64,000 nucleotides of DNA, from contig CAZKWA010000004.1 in assembly GCA_964556345.1 (NCBI GenBank), forward strand, positions 3,488 to 67,487, given 5' to 3'. The position numbers were made by a program, and so were the translations under genes. The notes beneath the pieces were generated by a model. The model was not told the origin of the DNA and searched no databases. It saw only the letters and a program-made list of their open reading frames with translations. This DNA is from an uncultured Alcanivorax sp. (GTDB taxonomy: Bacteria; Pseudomonadota; Gammaproteobacteria; Pseudomonadales; Alcanivoracaceae). Positions 56,448 to 64,000 of this stretch are shown here, piece by piece (the stretch's first letter is position 1; each line of letters begins with the position of its first letter).

Positions 56448-57224
56448 TCAGCGGGGGCCGTCGTTCCCGGCCACCTCCACTTTGACCTCCAGGGGCAGCG
56501 ACAGCCGCTCGGTGCGCGTGGTCGCGCCCTCCAGGCCCGCCCCGGCGCTGTTCTCACTGACCGTGATCTGCCCCAGCGGCTGCCATTGCCCGGGTGTCAC
56601 CACCAGGGTGCTGCTGGCGTCCTGAGTGCGCGCCCGGCGGTGACCGGTGGGCTCGTCGAAGCGTTGCCGGATGGTCAGGCGCACCCGCCCGTCGCTGGTG
56701 ATCACCGGGGTGATGTCGATGCCTTGCTTGAGCGCCAGCAGCGCCGGGAACTGGGTGCCGGTGAGGGCCACCAGGCTGCCCTGGCTGATGCCCGCGGGGT
56801 GGCCCGACAGGGTGTTGATGCTGTAGCTGTCCTGGCGCCGGGTGGTGACGGTGTGGGCGCCGGTGCGCACGCCCCGGTCGTCGATGCGGAGATCGCCGCC
56901 GGCGCTTTGGCTCTCGCCCTGGCGGCGCAGCTGTACCGTCACGGTGCGTGGCACCTCGGGCATGTCGCCGAGGGCAGCGAGTATCTCATCGAAGTTGCGG
57001 TCGTCGGTGCGGATCACCAGCTTGCCCTGGTAGGCGTTGGCGTAGCCGCCCTCGGGCAGCAGCGGGCGGATCACCGGCAGCAGGGCCTCGGCGTCGGCGC
57101 GCTGGATGACGTGGATCGACATTTCCTCGGCGCGGGCCGCGCCGGCCAGTAACAGCCCGAGCAGGGCCAGCAGCAGCGTCAGGCGGGACGGTACGAGCCG
57201 GGCGGGGCGGGTTGATGACGTCAT
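56448..57224 (-). CDS. small secretin-like protein (secretin N-type domain plus compact secretin core)
   Basis: Signal peptide ...LLLAGAARA-EE. IHVIQRADAEALLPVIRPLLPEGG...KLVIRTDDRNFDEILAALGDMP resembles a secretin N domain. ...GIDITPVITSDGRVRLTIRQRF...STLVVTPGQWQPLG resembles the secretin beta-domain core. ATG 57224 behind GGAAGG; alternative start at 57245. Confidence 0.55.
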   Translation of the reverse strand: MTSSTRPARLVPSRLTLLLALLGLLLAGAARAEEMSIHVIQRADAEALLPVIRPLLPEGGYANAYQGKLVIRTDDRNFDEILAALGDMPEVPRTVTVQLRRQGESQSAGGDLRIDDRGVRTGAHTVTTRRQDSYSINTLSGHPAGISQGSLVALTGTQFPALLALKQGIDITPVITSDGRVRLTIRQRFDEPTGHRRARTQDASSTLVVTPGQWQPLGQITVSENSAGAGLEGATTRTERLSLPLEVKVEVAGNDGPR

Positions 57225-57381
57225 GGCGGTGCCTTCCGTGTGCATGGTGTTCCGGCATGATAGCGGTAACGGCGTATCGGTTTCACCCTGTGTCGGCGGT
57301 TGCGCCGCCCCCCAAACCCCGCATAATGGCCCGCCCCGAAACGAGGCGCGACAATCGCGTTGTCGGTATGCGAGAACCAGG

Positions 57382-58283: not shown

Positions 58284-59105
58284 ATGAAACTGAACACTCT
58301 GAATACAGCGTTTGGCACCAGATGGCTGACCACCACCGCCGCTTTGTTGGCCGGTGTTCTTCTGGCTCCCGCCGCCCTGGCCGGGGACGACGATAATCCG
58401 CTTGCCCCGTTCGAGGACACCGGGCCGTACTCCACCACCCGGGACACCGGGTTCAGCTGCACCATTTACCGGCCGATCAGCCTCGACAGCGATCACCCGG
58501 TGATTATCTGGGGCAATGGCACCGGCACCTCGCCGTCCACTTATGGCAGTGGCCTGGAACACTGGGCGTCCTGGGGCTTCGTGGTGGCCGCCGCCAACAC
58601 CAGCAACGCCGGTTCCGGCGAAGAGATGCTTGATTGCATTGATTATCTTGAAGGCCGCAGCTACGCCGACGACCTGGATTTCTCCAAGATCGGCGCGTCC
58701 GGGCACTCCCAGGGGGGCGGCGGCACCATCATGGCGGCCCGCGACGGACGTATTACCGCCACCGCGCCGATGCAGCCGTACATTCTCGGTCTCGGCCATG
58801 ACACCACCTCCCAGTATCAGCAGCATGCGCCGATGCTGTTGATGTCCGGCTCCGCCGACACCCTGGCCGGCCCCACGCTGAACCAGGCTCCGGTGTACCG
58901 GCGCGTGGACGTGCCGGTGTTCTGGGCGACGCTGAACGGCGCCAGCCATTTTGAACCCACCGGCGATTTCGGTGACTTCAAGGGCCTGAGCACCGCCTGG
59001 TGGTTGTATCAGCTGGAAGGTGATTCCGATGCTGCGAGCCTGTTCACGGGCGCCTGTTCCGCCTGTGATATAAGTGGTTGGGACATGGAGCGTAAGGGCC
59101 TGTAA
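58284..59105 (+). CDS. secreted alpha/beta hydrolase of the cutinase / PET-hydrolase / Streptomyces exfoliatus lipase fold
   Basis: Signal peptide ...LLAPAALAG. Nucleophile elbow GHSQGGGG, acid in SGSADTLAG, His in GASHFEP. These occur in the same order and spacing as in that family, with a C-terminal Cys pair (GACSACD). Alternative start at 58275. Confidence 0.65.
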   Translation: MKLNTLNTAFGTRWLTTTAALLAGVLLAPAALAGDDDNPLAPFEDTGPYSTTRDTGFSCTIYRPISLDSDHPVIIWGNGTGTSPSTYGSGLEHWASWGFVVAAANTSNAGSGEEMLDCIDYLEGRSYADDLDFSKIGASGHSQGGGGTIMAARDGRITATAPMQPYILGLGHDTTSQYQQHAPMLLMSGSADTLAGPTLNQAPVYRRVDVPVFWATLNGASHFEPTGDFGDFKGLSTAWWLYQLEGDSDAASLFTGACSACDISGWDMERKGL

Positions 59106-59143: not shown

Positions 59144-59258
59144 GCGACACTTAACCCCATGCCGATGGCAAACTGGTTCTGGCAAGCGGATTGCGGGGCC
59201 GGGTGCCCTCGCACCGTTGCCGCTGCCAAAAGAATAATAAGGTTTGGGAGCGAGAACG

Positions 59259-60311
59259 ATGAACTCGAAACTGGATGACGGCCTGATGCCGCTTCACCGG
59301 CATCCTCTCGGTTTTATCGAAGCGTTTTGCAGTCTCGGCGCGAGCCAGGAGGCGCTGCTTCGAAACACCGGTATCTCGGCCTCGATGTTCGGGATGCAGG
59401 ACATCCACATCGGCCACGATCAATTCCAACAACTCCTTTATAACGGCATCGAAGCGTGCTCGCGCCCCGCGCTCGGGGTGGCGGTGGGCATGCAATTCGG
59501 CTGGTCGTACTGGGGGCCGGTGGGTTATGTGATCCATTGCAGCCCCAGCTTGAAGCTGGCCGGCGAGGCCTTCCGGCGTTATCTGGTGATGTCGCAACCC
59601 TATTACGCCGAGCACGCCTCCAGGCCGAACGCCTATCTGGACGCCGACAACCGGGTGGTGGAACCGATTGACTACACCACCGGCAGCGAGCAGCAAACGG
59701 TGTTGCGCGACTTTATCCGCGAATGGCGGCTGGCGGTGACCCTGCGGCTGTGGGACCTGTGTGGCAATAAGGCGGTCGCCGATCCGGCGGTGCATGTGCG
59801 GCTGGACCGGCCGCGCCCCTGCTCCGACACCCCCTATCAGGCGCTGCCGTGCCGGAGTATCGCCTTCGATTGCGACGAGTTTTCCATCTCCGCGCACGCG
59901 GACTACGTATTCCGACGTTTCCGGCCACTGCGCAAGCGCGCGTTCGAGCGCATTATCGAAGAGTGCGAGCGGGAACTGAGCCGGGTGCCGGAGCGCCTGC
60001 CGTTCACGGAACGGGTGCGCTCGCATATCCGCGCTCATTTTCGGCCGGACCTGACCCTGGAGACGGTGGCCCGGCAACTGCATCTCACACCCCGTGGCCT
60101 GAGTCGGCGCCTCGCCCGGGAGAGAGCGTCGTTCCGCCGTTTGCTGCACGCCGTGCGTATGGAAATCGCCAGTTATCAGCTGCGTCATTCGCGGCTGGAT
60201 GTGGAGGACGTGGCGGCCCTGGCCGGGTTTTCCTGCGCGTCCAGCCTGCGCCGCGCGGTGAAGAGCTGGACCGGGACCACGGTGGGGGAAATACGCGAGC
60301 TGACCGAATGA
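59259..60311 (+). CDS. AraC-family transcriptional regulator
   Basis: 350 aa from ATG 59259 behind GGGAG. C-terminal HTH ...LETVARQLHLTPRGLSRRLARE...VEDVAALAGFSCASSLRRAVKSWTG. Confidence 0.85.
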   Translation: MNSKLDDGLMPLHRHPLGFIEAFCSLGASQEALLRNTGISASMFGMQDIHIGHDQFQQLLYNGIEACSRPALGVAVGMQFGWSYWGPVGYVIHCSPSLKLAGEAFRRYLVMSQPYYAEHASRPNAYLDADNRVVEPIDYTTGSEQQTVLRDFIREWRLAVTLRLWDLCGNKAVADPAVHVRLDRPRPCSDTPYQALPCRSIAFDCDEFSISAHADYVFRRFRPLRKRAFERIIEECERELSRVPERLPFTERVRSHIRAHFRPDLTLETVARQLHLTPRGLSRRLARERASFRRLLHAVRMEIASYQLRHSRLDVEDVAALAGFSCASSLRRAVKSWTGTTVGEIRELTE

Positions 60312-60320
60312 GGCGCGGTG

Positions 60321-61049
60321 ATGTTCAATAGCAGAGGATCCGTCGGGCGCTGGCTCGGTGGCGCCGCGATCACGCTGGCGCTGGCCGCCGGCCTCTGGCT
60401 GGCCGGCAACCCGCCGGTGCCGGACGCGCCGCCCATGCCGGAGCCGGTGGCCCCGGCGCCGCCGAGCGCGCGCGCGCCGGACGCCGGACCGGCTCCGGCG
60501 GAGCAGGAAGGACGGGCCGCCGTCGAGCCGGGCACGCCGTCCCGCGCGCCGCTCCCGGAGCAGGCGGCGGTCACGGAAGCGCTCGGCGGTCTGCAATGGG
60601 ACCGGCAAGGGCGGTTGCGGGTCGACGCCGAAGTCAGAGCGCACCTGGACGCCCTGTTCATAGAGCCGGAAACGCCCATCGATCCGGCCCGGTTCGAGAC
60701 CCTGAAGCGGAGAATCCTGGCCGCGTTGCCGGACGACAAAAGCCGGCAGGTGCTGGAGGTGGTGGAGCGCTATTACCACTACAGCAGCGTCTACCGTGAT
60801 CTGGCCGATAATTTCCGCTACCTGGGCAGCGAGGAAGAGATCGCCCGGGGGCAGCGCCAGCTGTACGCACTGCGGCGGGATTACCTCGGCGCGGAGCTGG
60901 CCGAGGCCCTGTTCGGCGAAGAGGAGCGCATGATGCGCGTGACCCTGGAGAACATGCGCATCCAGTCCGATCCGACGCTGACCGAGGCGCAAAAGCGGGA
61001 ACGGCAGCAGCCGCTCAACGGAACGCAGGAACCGGACGAAGACCGCTAG
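60321..61049 (+). CDS. Lif-type lipase chaperone (lipase-specific foldase family), short form
   Basis: N-terminal TM anchor and Pro/Ala linker. Then segments parallel Pseudomonas LipH: LQWDRQGRLRVDAEVRAHLDALF, LEVVERYYHYSSVYRDL, LRRDYLGAELAEALFGEEERMMRVTLENMRI...LTEAQK. Starts 9 nt after the araC stop. Confidence 0.65.
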   Translation: MFNSRGSVGRWLGGAAITLALAAGLWLAGNPPVPDAPPMPEPVAPAPPSARAPDAGPAPAEQEGRAAVEPGTPSRAPLPEQAAVTEALGGLQWDRQGRLRVDAEVRAHLDALFIEPETPIDPARFETLKRRILAALPDDKSRQVLEVVERYYHYSSVYRDLADNFRYLGSEEEIARGQRQLYALRRDYLGAELAEALFGEEERMMRVTLENMRIQSDPTLTEAQKRERQQPLNGTQEPDEDR

Positions 61050-62565
61050 CGCCGATCAAGGCCCGGCACAGCGCCACCGCCGTCACCAGGTAAAGCAGCC
61101 GGATGAACCAGCCCGGATGGCGGGTAAAGAAGCTGTCCGCCGCCGATGCCGGCATCGGAATATCCACCCAATAGGCGGCTTCCCGGCCGTACTCGGACTG
61201 CAGCAGGCGGCGCCCGCTGGGCAGGATCACCGCCGAGGGGCCGTTGTTGATCACGTGCAGCAGGGGGCGGCGGTTTTCCACGGCGCGCAATACCGAGGCG
61301 TCGAGGTGCTGGTGGGGCTGACGCGAGGCGCCGAACCAGGCGTTATTGGACAGCACCACCAGCAATTCCGCCGCGCCACCACCCCGGGCGGCGTTCGCCA
61401 CCAGGCGGGGAAACAGCGCCTCGTAGCAGATCAGGGGCAGGGCCTCCAGGCCGGCGGCGGCGAAGCGCCGTGGCCGGTCCCCCGCGCTGACCTTGCTGAA
61501 AAAGCCGCCAAGCTGTTCGCGCACCCGGCTGCCGGTGCGGGGAAAGGCTTCCAGCAGCGGCAGGTATTCGCCGAAGGCGACGCGCCGGATTTTCCGATAG
61601 CGGCCCTGTTCGTGCCCGTCGGCGTCGATCAGAACGGCGCTGTTGAACTGTTCGCCGGCGTCCGCCTCCATGCCCTGGAAGATCAGCGCGGCGTCCAGTT
61701 CGTCCACGGAGCGGCGCAGGGCCTCGGCGACCCGGGGCGCGGCGAAGTAATCGTCGACGCCGGTTTCCGACCAGACCACCAGGTCCGCGCCGTCCCGCGC
61801 CAGGGGCTCGGACAGCGCCAGGGCGCGCGGGTAGGCGAAGCCGTGGCCGGGGGCGGGGGGCGAGGCGTCCCGCGACAGGTTTTCCTGCACGAAACCGACG
61901 CGCCGCGACGGGGCGTCGTCGCCGGCGTTGTCCCAGTGGTGGAGAAGGGCGCCGCCGCAGCCCAGCCACAGCACCGGCAGGGCGGCGGCCGCCAGGCCGG
62001 CTTTGTCGTTCAGGCCGCGCGCCGTCGAACGGCGCTCGAAGAGCCAGCGATAGAGCAGAATGTTGACCAGGGCGATGACCGCGTCCAGGGCGTGCACGCC
62101 GCCCCAGGCGACCGGCTGCAGGGCGGTCAGGAAGGCGCTCTGGCTTTCACCCAACTGGGCCTGGAACAGCATCGGAAAGCGGGCGAAGAACAGCGCGGTG
62201 AGCACCGGAAACAGCAGCAGCGCGGACCAGCCGGTGTGCCGCCGCAACCCCTGGAAGGCGAGCATCAGCAGCGCCGGCAGCTGGGCGCTGTAAAGCCAGA
62301 ACAGGAACGCCAGCCCGGCGGTCACCAGCGGGCCGGGCGACCACAGGTTCTGGAGGAAGGCGATGATCCAGAAGGCACCCAGGCCGTAGAACACCAGCCC
62401 GCAGACCAGCCCCAGGCGGTAAGCCCGGGCCGCGCCGGCGTCGCGGACGGCCACCAGCAGGGGCACGAACGCCACCCAGGCGAACAGGAACAAGGCGTTG
62501 TGCAGGAACGGCAAGGCCAGCAGCACGCCGGACAGGCCCGCCAGCAGGACATCCCGCCACCGCAC
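61015..62565 (-). CDS. apolipoprotein N-acyltransferase (Lnt) family protein
   Basis: 516 aa. N-terminal polytopic domain plus a CN-hydrolase domain with the E-K-C triad context (VVWSETGV, YRKIRRVAFGEYLP, LICYEALF) and NNAWFG...QHL. GTG start behind GGGGAGG, 2 nt after the upstream stop. Confidence 0.8.
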   Translation of the reverse strand: MRWRDVLLAGLSGVLLALPFLHNALFLFAWVAFVPLLVAVRDAGAARAYRLGLVCGLVFYGLGAFWIIAFLQNLWSPGPLVTAGLAFLFWLYSAQLPALLMLAFQGLRRHTGWSALLLFPVLTALFFARFPMLFQAQLGESQSAFLTALQPVAWGGVHALDAVIALVNILLYRWLFERRSTARGLNDKAGLAAAALPVLWLGCGGALLHHWDNAGDDAPSRRVGFVQENLSRDASPPAPGHGFAYPRALALSEPLARDGADLVVWSETGVDDYFAAPRVAEALRRSVDELDAALIFQGMEADAGEQFNSAVLIDADGHEQGRYRKIRRVAFGEYLPLLEAFPRTGSRVREQLGGFFSKVSAGDRPRRFAAAGLEALPLICYEALFPRLVANAARGGGAAELLVVLSNNAWFGASRQPHQHLDASVLRAVENRRPLLHVINNGPSAVILPSGRRLLQSEYGREAAYWVDIPMPASAADSFFTRHPGWFIRLLYLVTAVALCRALIGASGLRPVPAFR

Positions 62566-62567
62566 GG

Positions 62568-63107
62568 TTACCGTGCCTCCCCGCCGGTGTCCGCCCGGAT
62601 CGCGTCACGCATGGCGTTTTCGTCCTGGAACAAGGTTGCCGCCCGGTCTCCGAAATGGCTTTCCTGCAAGCGCCGGCGCGCGGGGGACGCCCCGGCGGGC
62701 AGCGCCGCCAGGGCGTCGCGGTAGGCCAGATAGTCGGCCAGCAGGGCCCGGGTTTGGTCCGCCGCCGCCGGCAGGGCGCGCGACGTCAGCAGGCGCAGGC
62801 GCTGACGCTCGGCCGGGGTCAGCGGGCCCTGAACGGCGTCCGCCGCGCGTCGCACCGCCGCCAGCGTGCGCGCGTCATAGCGCAGGCGCCCGTCCGGGTC
62901 CACGGGCAGGCGTTTCAGCATATGATCGAGCGCCGGCCACAGGTCGGGATTGCCGGCTTCGGCCCAGGCGGGCAGGGTGGCGCGCCCGGACGCGGCGGTA
63001 TCGGCGGCGGGCCACCGCGAATGCAGGGCGGCCAGCCCGAGCAGGACCAGCAGCGCCAACGCCGGCCAGCGGTCCGCTGCACCGGGTGACAGACCAGAAT
63101 CGTGCAT
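62568..63107 (-). CDS. short membrane-anchored Lif-like (lipase-chaperone-like) protein
   Basis: 179 aa from ATG 63107. TM anchor RWPALALLVLLGLAAL. Segments LPVDPDGRLRYDARTL, ALLADYLAYRDALAAL and LQESHFGDRAATLFQDENAMRDAI align in order with the Lif-type protein at 60321..61049. Confidence 0.5.
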   Translation of the reverse strand: MHDSGLSPGAADRWPALALLVLLGLAALHSRWPAADTAASGRATLPAWAEAGNPDLWPALDHMLKRLPVDPDGRLRYDARTLAAVRRAADAVQGPLTPAERQRLRLLTSRALPAAADQTRALLADYLAYRDALAALPAGASPARRRLQESHFGDRAATLFQDENAMRDAIRADTGGEAR

Positions 63108-63235
63108 GTTTGAGCGCTCCGGCGTGGGAAACCGGTTCGATGGTAGCACCGACCACCAGGATCGCGACCCGGGCGGTGACGCCACGCGCCCGGCGGGCCG
63201 GTTTTGCGTGTGTGGGGTATGCCGGCGGCGGCGAC

Positions 63236-63733
63236 TTACAGGTGCAGTTCCCGCAGCTCCCGGCTGCCGCGGGCCCGTTCCCAGGTGCGCAGGAATTCAT
63301 CCGCCCGGCGCGGCGCCCGGGGCAGGGCATGGCCGCACAGATCAAGCCGCTCCGGGCGGGGCCAGCCGGTGGCTTCGAACAGGCCGGTGCGGTCGGCGAC
63401 GGCGAAGCACAGGCGCCCGTCGACGTCGTCGGGCTGGGTCTGGCGCAGTTGCAGCCGCGACGGCAGCCGCCGGCTCAGAGGCACCAGGCCGTGGCCGTTT
63501 TTCACCGCGCGTTCGACGTCGTCGAACAGAATGCGCAGATCGGCGCGCGGTGAGGACAGGGCGAGGCGTTTGAGGGCCTCGAGAACGTCCGCGTCGTCGG
63601 TGAGCGCGTCCAGCGCCGGCACCCGCAACCACAGACGCCGCCCGCAGGCGCGGATCAGCGCCGCCAGACCCGCCGTCGCGGAAGACGGGTGGTGCAGGGT
63701 GTCGTCCTCGCCGATCCGAACGTCCATGGACAT
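63236..63733 (-). CDS. hypothetical protein (165 aa)
   Basis: Coding-type GC3 bias. Starts 7 nt after the upstream GNAT stop. No family recognised. Confidence 0.55.
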   Translation of the reverse strand: MSMDVRIGEDDTLHHPSSATAGLAALIRACGRRLWLRVPALDALTDDADVLEALKRLALSSPRADLRILFDDVERAVKNGHGLVPLSRRLPSRLQLRQTQPDDVDGRLCFAVADRTGLFEATGWPRPERLDLCGHALPRAPRRADEFLRTWERARGSRELRELHL

Positions 63734-63740
63734 CGCCGCC

Positions 63741-64000
63741 TCAGGTGAGCAGCTTGAACATCTGCCGGTGGGGGATGTGCGCGTCCATGAAAATGCCCCC
63801 GGAGGCGGAGAAGCCCGCCGCTTCGTAGAAGCTGGTGGCGTGGGTCTGGGCGTAGAGGAAGATCTCCCGCATGTTGGCGGCGCGGGCCGCTTCCTCGGCG
63901 GCCACCAGCAGGGCCCGGCCGATGCCGCTGTTGCGGCGGGTTTCCAGCACGCACAGGCGGCTGATCTGGCCGCTGCCGAGCAGCCGGATACAGCCGATCG
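63741..64000 (-). CDS. GNAT-family N-acetyltransferase (5' part lies beyond the window)
   Basis: The frame stays open to the window end. ...IGCIRLLGSGQISRLCVLETRRNSGIGRALL (acetyl-CoA motif R..G.G) ...SFYEAAGF. Confidence 0.75.
   Translation of the reverse strand, partial: IGCIRLLGSGQISRLCVLETRRNSGIGRALLVAAEEAARAANMREIFLYAQTHATSFYEAAGFSASGGIFMDAHIPHRQMFKLLT

Follow-up and report, generated by a model that had tools for sequence, protein, structure and literature searches.

Gene organization of the Lnt2 locus

The window, i.e. the whole 64-kb stretch of DNA that was analysed, contains a gene for a 516-aa Lnt-family protein, here termed Lnt2, an upstream 179-aa ORF, and genes encoding a Lif-family foldase, an AraC-family regulator and a secreted alpha/beta hydrolase (Table 1). 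The 179-aa ORF begins with ATG and has a GC3 of 0.85. The original prediction placed the GTG start of Lnt2 2 nt past the stop of this ORF and the Shine-Dalgarno sequence of Lnt2, GGGGAGG, inside the 3' end of the same ORF, and both statements were borne out by the sequence.

Table 1. Coordinates, in the window, of the genes and sequence features at the Lnt2 locus
Feature	Position	Strand	Basis
Secreted alpha/beta hydrolase, PETase / P. mendocina cutinase type, GHSQGGG	58284..59105	+	PF12740, PDB
AraC-family regulator, ends 6 nt before Lif start	59244..60311	+	Pfam Arabinose_bd and HTH_18; kept in cluster
243-aa Lif-family foldase, convergent with Lnt2	60318..61049	+	PF03280, NCBIfam, PDB
3'-end overlap of the convergent Lnt2 and Lif genes, 35 nt	61015..61049	.	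ORF coordinates
Lnt2, 516-aa accessory Lnt paralog, LNT_N membrane and periplasmic CN-hydrolase domains (predicted)	61015..62565	-	Pfam, TIGR00546, alignments, AF2
Codon of catalytic acyl-accepting Cys380 (predicted), motif LICYEALFP	61426..61428	-	Clade alignment
Codon of catalytic Lys325 (predicted), motif RYRKIRRVAFGEY	61591..61593	-	Clade alignment
Codon of catalytic Glu267 (predicted), motif VVWSETGV	61765..61767	-	Clade alignment
Translational-coupling junction: GGGGAGG 62576-62582, TAA 62568-62570, 2-nt gap, GTG 62563-62565	62563..62582	-	Sequence
Short Lif-like protein, 179 aa, predicted C-terminally truncated lipase-foldase homolog	62568..63107	-	Ortholog PF03280 matches, hhalign, AF2/Foldseek

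The 243-aa Lif scored 54.8 bits against PF03280 over profile positions 3-90 of 192 and matched PDB 2ES4_D with E = 7e-11; its scores against the NCBIfam lipase secretion chaperone models were all under the curated cutoffs (best 69.8 bits, cutoff 285). This protein is also shortened, matching residues 22-223 of the 332 residues of B. glumae Lif. The same overlap of the Lnt2 and Lif 3' ends, of 34-58 nt, was present in loci L001-L012. In the PDB the hydrolase matched 9K0H (293 bits) and 2FX5 (271 bits), and its signal peptide, ending in ...APAALA, is followed by GDDDNPLAP.

The 179-aa ORF encodes a predicted short Lif homolog

The 179-aa protein is predicted to consist of an N-terminal membrane anchor at about residues 16-28, a disordered linker, and a helical periplasmic domain at about residues 56-174. 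Its AF2 model has a helix at residues 10-30, disorder over residues 31-55 and six helices over residues 56-174, with a pLDDT of about 90.

Searches of Pfam, NCBIfam and PDB sequences with the 179-aa protein alone gave no match, phmmer against the whole library recovered only 13 short relatives, and BLASTP against the 243-aa Lif gave E = 0.009 at 32% identity over 82 aa, which is weak for a single pair. Comparison of the short-Lif family with the neighbouring Lif by hhalign gave a probability of 98.35% and E = 1.1e-14 over 150 columns. PF03280 scored 20.5-23.5 bits against close orthologs of the 179-aa protein, under the gathering score of 25.7, and 30-52 bits, over this score, against more distant positional orthologs. 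The best PDB matches of the AF2 model in Foldseek were the B. glumae and A. baumannii foldases (2ES4_E, 2ES4_D and 9G8U_B), with 132 of 278 target residues covered by the alignment. The Lif-like character that had been proposed for this ORF therefore stands at the level of the family, where hhalign, the ortholog PF03280 matches and the fold agree, and is weak for the single pair; the Lipase_chap profile did not match the window protein itself, and the homology appears only through its family. Placed by positional orthologs, profile-profile comparison and predicted fold, the 179-aa protein is probably a membrane-anchored, C-terminally truncated Lif homolog.

The truncation is apparent from the profile, of which the orthologs match positions 1-95 only and the 179-aa protein ends at about position 60-90 of 192. 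The defining Lif motif, RxxFDY(F/C)L(S/T)A, lies in mini-domain 1, and canonical Lifs clamp their lipases by this motif together with the C-terminal mini-domain. The motif is absent from the short Lif (TLAAVRRAADA is aligned with VREFFDYCLTA of B. glumae Lif), as is C-terminal mini-domain 2. Like canonical Lifs (LipH, LipB, LimA; PF03280; 2ES4, 9G8U), it has an N-terminal anchor, a variable linker and an all-helical periplasmic domain, as predicted, and is encoded in a lipolytic-enzyme cluster. It differs from them in being about half as long (179 aa versus about 340 aa) and in the position of its gene, which does not adjoin or follow a family I.1/I.2 lipase gene but is coupled to the acyltransferase gene directly downstream, the neighbouring enzyme being the PETase/cutinase-type PF12740 hydrolase.

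Lnt2 is a predicted accessory Lnt paralog

Pfam assigned residues 12-170 of Lnt2 to PF20154 (LNT_N, 60.9 bits) and residues 247-462 to PF00795 (CN_hydrolase, 70.9 bits), and the TIGR00546 score of 217.9 bits was above the equivalog cutoff of 132.9. The catalytic motifs align with those of P. aeruginosa and E. coli Lnt. E267, K325 and C380, as well as W265, E333, E382 and W410, were invariant in 48 clade members, and Y381, present in Lnt2, was conserved in at least 90% of them; in E. coli Lnt numbering the triad is Glu267-Lys335-Cys387, with the essential neighbours E343, Y388 and E389. The AF2 model (pLDDT 91.4) had a TM of 0.74-0.81 against Lnt structures. Lnt2 thus appears to share with the Lnt of E. 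coli (b0657) and P. aeruginosa (PDB 5N6M) the eight-helix LNT_N and periplasmic CN-hydrolase domains, the Glu-Lys-Cys triad, and equivalents of W237/E343/Y388/E389/W415. The intact E-K-C context reported earlier for this gene is present, and the agreement of Pfam, TIGR00546 and the modelled fold makes a solid case for an Lnt-family enzyme, of predicted function, that retains the complete Lnt fold together with the Glu-Lys-Cys residues for acyl transfer. The characteristic activity of Lnt itself is N-acylation of the diacylglyceryl-cysteine of apolipoproteins.

The identity of Lnt2 to E. coli and P. aeruginosa Lnt is 20-28%, with a score of only 64 bits against the latter. The Lnt2 clade is set apart by bit scores that descend from 1147 to 286 and then fall to 166 for generic Lnts. 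A scan of 185,579 species genomes with the clade-specific motif [LM][VLI]H[VAL][IMV]NNGPS found about 96 matching stretches in few species per genus, including a minority of Marinobacter and Alcanivorax species and none of the Burkholderiales genomes. Two clade members occurred in one MAG (L060 and L062). Housekeeping lnt in gammaproteobacteria normally lies downstream of ybeZ-ybeY-ybeX(corC), a context confirmed here for E. coli lnt. As had been stated in the original prediction, the window gene is outside this context: no YbeX, YbeY or YbeZ homolog was found within 10 kb of Lnt2, either here or at any of the 88 related loci. Lnt2 therefore lacks both features of a housekeeping lnt, namely this context and near-universal single-copy presence in the genus.

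On these comparisons Lnt2 is very probably an accessory, non-housekeeping Lnt paralog, which differs from E. coli and P. aeruginosa Lnt in being patchily distributed, Lif-coupled and located inside a lipase/cutinase cluster without ybeZ-ybeY-ybeX neighbours, and the TIGR00546 equivalog label probably over-reaches for it. The ordinary reading, in which the genome's housekeeping lnt is oddly placed beside a 179-aa ORF that is lineage-specific noise, would accommodate the TIGR00546 score and the finding of no second lnt within the 64-kb window. However, the upstream ORF and the junction are conserved across many genera, and the restriction of the clade, the 0/88 loci with ybeZYX genes, the very low similarity to Pseudomonas and E. 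coli Lnt and the MAG with two members also speak against this reading, which is extremely improbable.

Conservation of the pair and of the surrounding cluster

A Lif-family ORF was located directly upstream of Lnt2 in 37 of 78 species-level loci from many genera, and the Lif-linked loci were monophyletic on the Lnt2 tree. The stop/start junction fell within -11 to +10 nt in 38 of 40 distinct loci, 18 of these having a 4-nt overlap; the coupling of short Lif and Lnt2 is more than chance. Flanks of 4.5 kb or more were available on either side of 26 Lif-linked loci; a second Lif was present in 24 of these and a PETase-like hydrolase in 16. The genes flanking the conserved cluster varied from genus to genus. 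Short Lif and Lnt2 are a conserved, translationally coupled unit that forms one arm of a lipolytic-enzyme cluster. Conservation of the pair in relatives was thus confirmed, and the core idea of a Lif-like partner reserved for an Lnt-type enzyme holds. The pair does not stand alone. The pairing had been put forward as undescribed, and no paper on it was found in the literature. Confidence in the identity of the parts, i.e. of the components of the short Lif and Lnt2 cluster, is high.

In Alkalilimnicola, Ectothiorhodospiraceae and Aquisalimonas, a PETase-like gene lies directly upstream of Lnt2 without a Lif, and in Marinobacter an unrelated GDSL/SGNH lipase gene follows Lnt2. Judging from gene order, Lnt2 is tied to the hydrolase and not to Lif alone. 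A Halopseudomonas subclade of Lnt2 is solitary, so that neither Lif nor a neighbouring hydrolase is needed for the enzyme to work; these solitary genes adjoin a divergent gene for a PlsC-type acyltransferase (PF01553).

Comparison with known systems

In the Aat/Cex systems of EAEC/ETEC, AatD/CexD, an Lnt homolog under AraC control, attaches an acyl group to the N-terminal Gly of CexE (PMC7943197; PMC7478709). The mature CexE N-terminus is GGGNS and additional Gly residues result in more acylation (PMC7943197; PMC7478709), and an aatD mutant can be complemented by E. coli Lnt (PMC7478709). Lnt2, likened to AatD/CexD by description, is similarly an accessory Lnt-family member encoded with a candidate Sec-exported substrate and with an AraC-family gene. 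The signal-peptidase-I-cut substrate with a Gly/Ser-rich N-terminus known from Aat/Cex (PMC7943197; PMC7478709) has a putative counterpart in the Lnt2 cluster. In contrast to the six TM segments reported for CexD in PMC13622617, the Lnt2 model shows all eight TM segments of the Lnt architecture. No AatPABC-type transporter genes, as in the aatPABCD and cexPABC-cexD systems, were found among the called neighbours of Lnt2; its candidate substrates are enzymes of 270-310 aa rather than small dispersin-like proteins; Lif-family partners are encoded beside it; and the N-terminal Gly of the hydrolases is not invariant.

The Lif gene adjoining IsPETase was reported to be conditionally essential on PET (bioRxiv 10.1101/2025.11.11.687616). 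Piscinibacter (Ideonella) sakaiensis shares with the Lnt2 cluster a Lif-family gene beside a PETase-type hydrolase gene, but neither an Lnt paralog nor a second short Lif is mentioned in the same report, where the terms 'N-acyltransferase' and 'Lnt' have 0 occurrences.

Possible role in maturation of a secreted hydrolase

That the pair lies in a conserved secreted-esterase cluster of marine bacteria points to a maturation step not described so far, which may be lipid anchoring. The best explanation as a whole, which falls somewhat short of an even chance, is that the pair belongs to a cluster for maturing a secreted lipolytic enzyme, in which Lnt2 would lipidate the hydrolase with the short Lif presenting it. 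What is observed are the gene structure, the homologies, the catalytic residues and the conservation of both pair and cluster; what we infer is the acyl acceptor of Lnt2 and that the short Lif acts as an adaptor. The mechanism, tentatively proposed by analogy with the action of AatD/CexD on CexE and with a probability clearly below even, is that the short Lif presents the Sec-exported hydrolase and Lnt2 N-acylates its Gly/Pro-rich N-terminus. Export by Sec and cleavage by signal peptidase I would expose a flexible Gly/Pro/Asp-rich N-terminal tether of the hydrolase, which would be folded by Lif. The short Lif-like protein, made in stoichiometry with Lnt2, would keep the hydrolase at the membrane and offer its N-terminus to Lnt2. 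An acyl chain would then pass from phospholipid onto Cys380 of Lnt2 and on to the N-terminal amine of the hydrolase, and the product would be a lipid-anchored, cell-associated polyesterase/lipase.

In both hydrolase families encoded near Lnt2, the PETase/cutinase-type and the GDSL enzymes, a signal peptide is followed by a low-complexity tether (GDDDNP, GGGGGGS, IGGGGGSS, xxPGGG or FTPDPDP, with cleavage sites read by eye), and these N-termini look like lipidation tethers. Several observations count against the mechanism. The predicted mature N-terminal residue varies (G, A, M, L, I, F, T or Y), whereas AatD has a strict requirement for Gly, the Lnt2 model departs from the six-TM type of AatD/CexD, the short Lif is without the motif and mini-domain that canonical Lifs use on lipases, one Lnt2 subclade, that of Halopseudomonas, is solitary, and no Aat/Lol-like exporter was found in the cluster.

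It is possible that Lnt2 instead acts on lipids in envelope lipid remodelling (e.g., lysophospholipid or N-acylated lipids), which might shield the inner membrane from active periplasmic lipase or cause Lif to let go of the hydrolase; the short Lif would make this activity depend on the hydrolase being present. The donor-side catalytic residues, all of which are conserved, and the PlsC-type lipid-metabolism neighbour of the solitary Halopseudomonas Lnt2 would fit such a role, and what is known of lipase release from Lif leaves room for it. However, we know of no Lnt-family member whose physiological role involves a lipid acceptor, and the low-complexity tethers of two unrelated hydrolase families would be left unexplained; action on lipids is considered unlikely. 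Translational coupling implies 1:1 synthesis of short Lif and Lnt2, which probably form a complex, and could also mean that the short Lif serves Lnt2 alone, as its chaperone or as a regulatory subunit, and that Lnt2 is an additional apolipoprotein N-acyltransferase of general action that is induced with the lipase cluster, as the score above the TIGR00546 cutoff and the full Lnt fold would allow. This appears quite unlikely, in that Lif members bind alpha/beta-hydrolase lipases rather than proteins with a CN-hydrolase fold (complexes 2ES4 and 9G8U), the pair is found specifically together with lipolytic enzymes, and the Halopseudomonas and Ectothiorhodospiraceae subclades do without any Lif; housekeeping Lnts, as far as we know, require no Lif-like partner either. 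Given the lipolytic-cluster context, the Lif-like protein more probably serves the hydrolase than the periplasmic domain of Lnt, which the original prediction had offered as one possible client.

The Lif-like proteins might themselves be the substrates of Lnt2, signal-peptide cleavage and acylation of the new N-terminus yielding a lipid-anchored mini-foldase chaperone. The tight adjacency and coupling of the two genes would agree with this, and AXA-like sites follow the hydrophobic segment in some orthologs, such as ...GVMA/SASPD and ...GVAAA/PDPGAG in Marinobacter (slashes mark the sites). In the window protein, however, no cleavage site is convincing (…AALHSRWPAAD), canonical Lifs are uncleaved N-in anchors, and loci with hydrolase and Lnt2 and no Lif exist, all of which make the Lif-like proteins very improbable substrates.

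Significance

PET-type hydrolases have been studied intensely as isolated enzymes, and to our knowledge little is known of their native maturation and localisation. A conserved cluster that links them to two foldase-type proteins and a dedicated Lnt paralog implies that further steps, not recognised so far, lie between their export and their function. Such steps could account for the poor heterologous expression of these enzymes, and the cluster suggests co-expression partners for engineering. If lipidation of the hydrolase by Lnt2 is true, the cluster would be a widespread environmental counterpart of AatD/CexD, so far known only in enteric pathogens, and would include the first Lif-family protein with an acyltransferase partner. 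In its most specific form, which we regard as doubtful, Lnt2 and a Lif-derived adaptor would be a dedicated machine that N-acylates non-cysteine N-termini of signal-peptidase-I-processed PETase/cutinase-type and GDSL hydrolases. Bacterial lipoproteins without a lipobox would then comprise, besides CexE/Aap, these hydrolases as a second class of independent origin from the first, and many marine 'secreted' polyesterases would really be lipid-tethered on the cell surface. Current pipelines annotate the pair as a plain 'apolipoprotein N-acyltransferase' and a 'hypothetical protein', which hides the module.

The gene pair and the Lnt family membership of Lnt2

The 516-aa protein is clearly a member of the Lnt family. 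Its Pfam domains are LNT_N and CN_hydrolase, it scored 217.9 bits against TIGR00546 (cutoff 132.9), and the intact E-K-C context noticed in the original prediction is present as E267, K325 and C380, together with W265, E333, Y381, E382 and W410. The catalytic-site residues are invariant or nearly so among 48 relatives and line up with the catalytic motifs in the Lnt proteins of both P. aeruginosa and E. coli, and the AlphaFold2 model (pLDDT 91.4, pTM 0.91) matched all solved Lnt structures at TM 0.74-0.81. Sequence and model together showed Lnt2 to be a putatively complete Lnt-type acyl-transfer enzyme.

The junction was located as originally described, with the Lnt2 start 2 nt past the stop codon of the 179-aa ORF and a Shine-Dalgarno sequence inside the end of that ORF. 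An alternative 205-aa reading of short Lif from a GTG at 63185 is possible, and public assemblies call another start. A search for promoters and terminators over 57.9-64 kb of the window gave no promoter matches and weak terminator-like sites only.

Coordinates of features in the window and in loci from other genomes
Feature	Locus	Position	Strand	Basis
265-aa exported protein	window	56448..57245	-	
PETase-like hydrolase	window	58284..59105	+	
AraC	window	59244..60311	+	
Lif, 243 aa	window	60318..61049	+	
Shared 3' ends of Lnt2 and Lif	window	61015..61049		
Lnt2 ORF, 516 aa, GTG start at 62563-62565	window	61015..62565	-	ORF reading
Short Lif ORF, 179 aa, ATG start, TAA stop at 62568-62570	window	62568..63107	-	ORF reading
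GGGGAGG, within 3' end of short Lif ORF	window	62576-62582	-	sequence
DUF7931 gene (PF25559, 100 bits) and GNAT acetyltransferase, just 5' of short Lif gene	window	63236..63950	-	Pfam
Single full-length Lif	Bermanella MAG L021	7220-8314		
Single full-length Lif	Oleiphilus MAG L041	8854-9963		
GDSL/SGNH hydrolase	Marinobacter L029	11493-13243		
PlsC-type acyltransferase	Halopseudomonas L074	8884-9810		

Lnt2 as an accessory paralog

The homolog search delimited a discrete Lnt2 clade whose members scored between 286 and 1147 bits (37-100% identity). The next matches, generic Lnts mainly of Myxococcota and Acidobacteria, scored no more than 166 bits. Against P. aeruginosa Lnt, Lnt2 scored only 64 bits, and its identity to E. 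coli Lnt was 28.5% over 214 residues. When one genome for each of 185,579 species was searched for the clade-specific motif [LM][VLI]H[VAL][IMV]NNGPS, only 96 matching stretches were found. The nearest relatives are in Alcanivorax MAGs (~81% amino-acid identity), so that the window most probably derives from a relative of Alcanivorax. Few Alcanivorax and Marinobacter species are represented in the clade, which fits an accessory rather than a housekeeping gene. Tblastn with Lnt2 found no clade member on plasmids, where generic Lnts below 30% identity were the only matches, and tblastn of the window found neither a second lnt nor further Lif-like ORFs.

The E. coli lnt context is ybeZ-ybeY-ybeX-lnt, as expected. 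The ybeZ-ybeY-corC context, named in the original prediction as the mark of a housekeeping lnt, is lacking around Lnt2 in all 88 loci, with no YbeX, YbeY or YbeZ homolog within 10 kb (0/88). By structure Lnt2 belongs to the Lnt family, but it fails the housekeeping-ortholog tests, and we infer a canonical lnt elsewhere in the same genome. Two Lnt2-clade members (L060, L062) occur on separate contigs of a single MAG, Pseudomonas sp. BHT04_PCL_gam2.

Short Lif as a truncated foldase homolog

The likeness of short Lif to the 243-aa Lif of the window, which had been put forward as shared sequence blocks, holds as family-level homology and barely by single-pair BLASTP (E = 0.009, 32% identity, 82 residues). 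Profile searches of the two proteins, which had been suggested as a check, were likewise divided: Lnt2 matched its expected domains, and short Lif alone matched neither Lipase_chap nor any other entry in Pfam, NCBIfam, PHROGs or PDB sequences. Several distant positional orthologs of short Lif exceeded the PF03280 gathering score of 25.7 bits (30.3, 36.8, 37.3, 41.5, 41.7 and 52.0 bits), and closer orthologs fell below it (20.5 and 23.5 bits).

An exhaustive phmmer search of 1.84 billion representatives returned only 13 relatives of short Lif, with no canonical Lif among them; 12 were 107-188 aa long and the thirteenth was a 1,752-aa protein aligned over a short repeated stretch. A word-indexed homolog search gave only 7 clusters when queried with short Lif itself and 12 when queried with a profile. 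Because direct searches yielded so few homologs, the family was assembled from genomic loci, as an alignment (A2) of the ORFs directly 5' of Lnt2 in related genomes. Short Lif aligns full-length within A2, and pairwise it matched the upstream ORFs of L011 (5.8e-36), Microbulbifer (1.8e-27) and M. nanhaiticus (1e-16). Comparison of A2 with the 243-aa Lif by hhalign gave a probability of 98.35% (E = 1.1e-14, 150 columns).

The AF2 model of short Lif (mean pLDDT 78.8, ~90 over residues 56-170) has a membrane helix that a disordered linker joins to six further helices. Its top PDB fold matches were foldases: B. glumae 2ES4_E (probability 1.00, E = 0.018) and 2ES4_D (probability 0.99, E = 0.092), and A. 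baumannii 9G8U_B (probability 0.92). The family alignment, the PF03280 scores of the orthologs, the hhalign result and the modeled fold together indicate that short Lif is a degenerate, truncated Lif homolog. Unlike canonical Lifs, it has neither the C-terminal mini-domain nor, at the aligned position, the RxxFDY(F/C)L(S/T)A motif.

The 243-aa Lif is itself shortened, corresponding to residues 22-223 of the 332 of the B. glumae foldase and to positions 3-90 of the 192-position Pfam profile, and the C-terminal mini-domain is missing in both foldase homologs of arrangement B (see the table of arrangements). The second Lif of arrangements A and C is full length (312-374 aa). In L021 and L041, one full-length Lif (364-369 aa) directly 5' of Lnt2 takes the place of Lif and short Lif, which suggests that the short form may have arisen through Lif duplication followed by truncation.

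Conservation of the cluster

Loci were mapped with home-built HMMs. The Lif-like/Lnt pairing proved to be conserved in several genera, as a Lif-family ORF lies directly 5' of Lnt2 on the same strand in 37 of 78 species-level loci, and a neighbor-joining tree of Lnt2 proteins placed the Lif-linked loci in one subclade. Complete genomes with the module include those of Marinobacter nanhaiticus (AP028878), Hydrocarboniclastica marina (CP031093) and Microbulbifer halophilus. Of 40 distinct loci, 38 have the stop/start junction between -11 and +10 nt, and 18 of these show a 4-nt overlap. Where a Lif-linked locus had 4.5 kb or more of flanking sequence on both sides (26 loci), a second Lif was found in 24 cases and a PETase-like hydrolase in 16. 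These comparisons showed that Lnt2 is apparently produced along with a Lif homolog anchored in the membrane, and that its gene is persistently co-located with genes for predicted Sec-exported lipolytic enzymes, a foldase and an AraC regulator.

Arrangements of the Lnt2 cluster
Arrangement	Gene order	Genomes
A	[AraC], PETase-like, [AraC], Lif (~320 aa), short Lif (~225-250 aa), Lnt2; one strand	Oleiphilus, Ketobacter, Allohahella, Shewanella, Alteromonadaceae
B	short Lif and Lnt2, convergent with PETase-like, AraC, Lif	window, other Alcanivorax, Microbulbifer halophilus, Marinobacter nanhaiticus
C	short Lif, Lnt2, GDSL/SGNH lipase, FGE-sulfatase-like gene, convergent full-length Lif	most Marinobacter
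D	PETase-like gene directly 5' of Lnt2, without Lif	Alkalilimnicola, Ectothiorhodospiraceae, Aquisalimonas
E	solitary Lnt2, adjoining a divergent PlsC-type acyltransferase (PF01553)	Halopseudomonas

Arrangements C and D tie Lnt2 to the hydrolase itself, beyond Lif. The genes flanking arrangement B vary from genus to genus, and the Halopseudomonas clade members have no Lif or hydrolase neighbor.

N-termini of the linked hydrolases

The window hydrolase belongs to the P. mendocina cutinase type (271 bits to 2FX5); it scored 293 bits against 9K0H and the same against 9W68, deposited as 'PETase'. In two unrelated Lnt2-linked hydrolase families, a signal-peptidase-I-type signal peptide is followed immediately by a low-complexity tether. 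With cleavage sites (slash) assigned by eye, the predicted N-termini are ALA/GDDDNPLAP in the window, AYS/GGGGGGSDEE in Shewanella and Alteromonadaceae, and AWA/IGGGGGSS in the Marinobacter GDSL lipase; tethers in other loci read xxPGGG or FTPDPDPDP. The predicted +1 residue differs among the hydrolases and is not conserved. A lipobox in the hydrolase was discarded, there being no Cys at the cleavage site.

The Marinobacter GDSL/SGNH hydrolase gene lies 3' of Lnt2 in L029 and also in L024, L031, L033, L035 and L066, with the FGE-sulfatase-like gene 3' of it. In its product, IGGGGGSS leads directly into the catalytic GDS block, and a conserved Cys in L-A-S-C of the signal peptide makes a lipobox reading also possible.

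Possible functions of the cluster

AatD/CexD is, to our knowledge, the only accessory homolog of Lnt to have been characterised. Under AraC control, it attaches an acyl group to the glycine that signal peptidase I exposes at the N-terminus of CexE (PMC7943197, PMC7478709). Mature CexE starts GGGNS, and extra glycines raise acylation (PMC7943197); E. coli Lnt is able to replace AatD (PMC7478709), and CexD is reported to have six TM segments (PMC13622617). Lnt2 is similar to AatD/CexD in logic but not in architecture. A Lif adjoining IsPETase was recently reported to be important for growth on PET, in a paper that makes no mention of an N-acyltransferase (bioRxiv 10.1101/2025.11.11.687616). The partner of Lnt2 is a Lif homolog failing several defining Lif features. 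The pairing had been predicted to be undescribed, and in agreement with this, full-text searches of the literature found no paper that connects an Lnt paralog with Lif or PETase/cutinase genes, nor any report of an Lnt-Lif-hydrolase cluster. As judged from sequence, the cluster is a conserved, undescribed combination of known families with a putative function; the synteny evidence for an Lnt2 module is strong, and its mechanism is what we infer.

Cluster linkage, the N-terminal tethers and the AatD/CexD precedent led to a working model of protein lipidation, in which short Lif would be an adaptor presenting the hydrolase, folded or still in the course of folding, to Lnt2, which would N-acylate the hydrolase N-terminus, and this acylation would tether the hydrolase to the cell envelope. 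Lipidation is the likeliest of the mechanisms considered for Lnt2, a tentative proposal in which our confidence is rather less than even. The variable +1 residue, the assignment of cleavage sites by eye, the partnerless Halopseudomonas Lnt2 and the lack of canonical client-clamping elements in short Lif weaken it, as does the lack of any Aat-like exporter in the cluster.

A lipid as the acyl acceptor of Lnt2 is unlikely; the Halopseudomonas gene beside a PlsC-type acyltransferase speaks for it and the tethered hydrolases of the other loci speak against it. Short Lif might alternatively be a chaperone or regulator of Lnt2, which is distinctly unlikely; the close junction of the two genes favors this reading and the Lif-less arrangement D does not. 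The same junction and arrangement D weigh in like manner on the very unlikely reading that short Lif is a substrate of Lnt2. It is extremely improbable that Lnt2 is a plain housekeeping lnt.

Additional features of the loci

The DUF7931 and GNAT genes accompany the pair only in the Alcanivorax lineage and in L011; they were therefore not counted with the module and probably represent local context. The 265-aa exported protein of the window has a sub-threshold secretin-like match (PF00263, 18 bits, cutoff 27.5); in related Alcanivorax loci, a 259-aa gene with no Pfam match lies 3' of a TrmB-like methyltransferase and is similar in size. In two loci (L014 and L018) a tandem pair of PETase-like genes lies 5' of Lif, short Lif and Lnt2, and in L018 each of the tandem genes has a separate AraC-type gene. 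The convergent 3' ends of Lnt2 and Lif share 35 nt in the window, and the loci of Alcanivorax, Microbulbifer and M. nanhaiticus retain such an overlap (34-58 nt), which leaves no space for terminators between both transcription units; antisense interference could occur between them.
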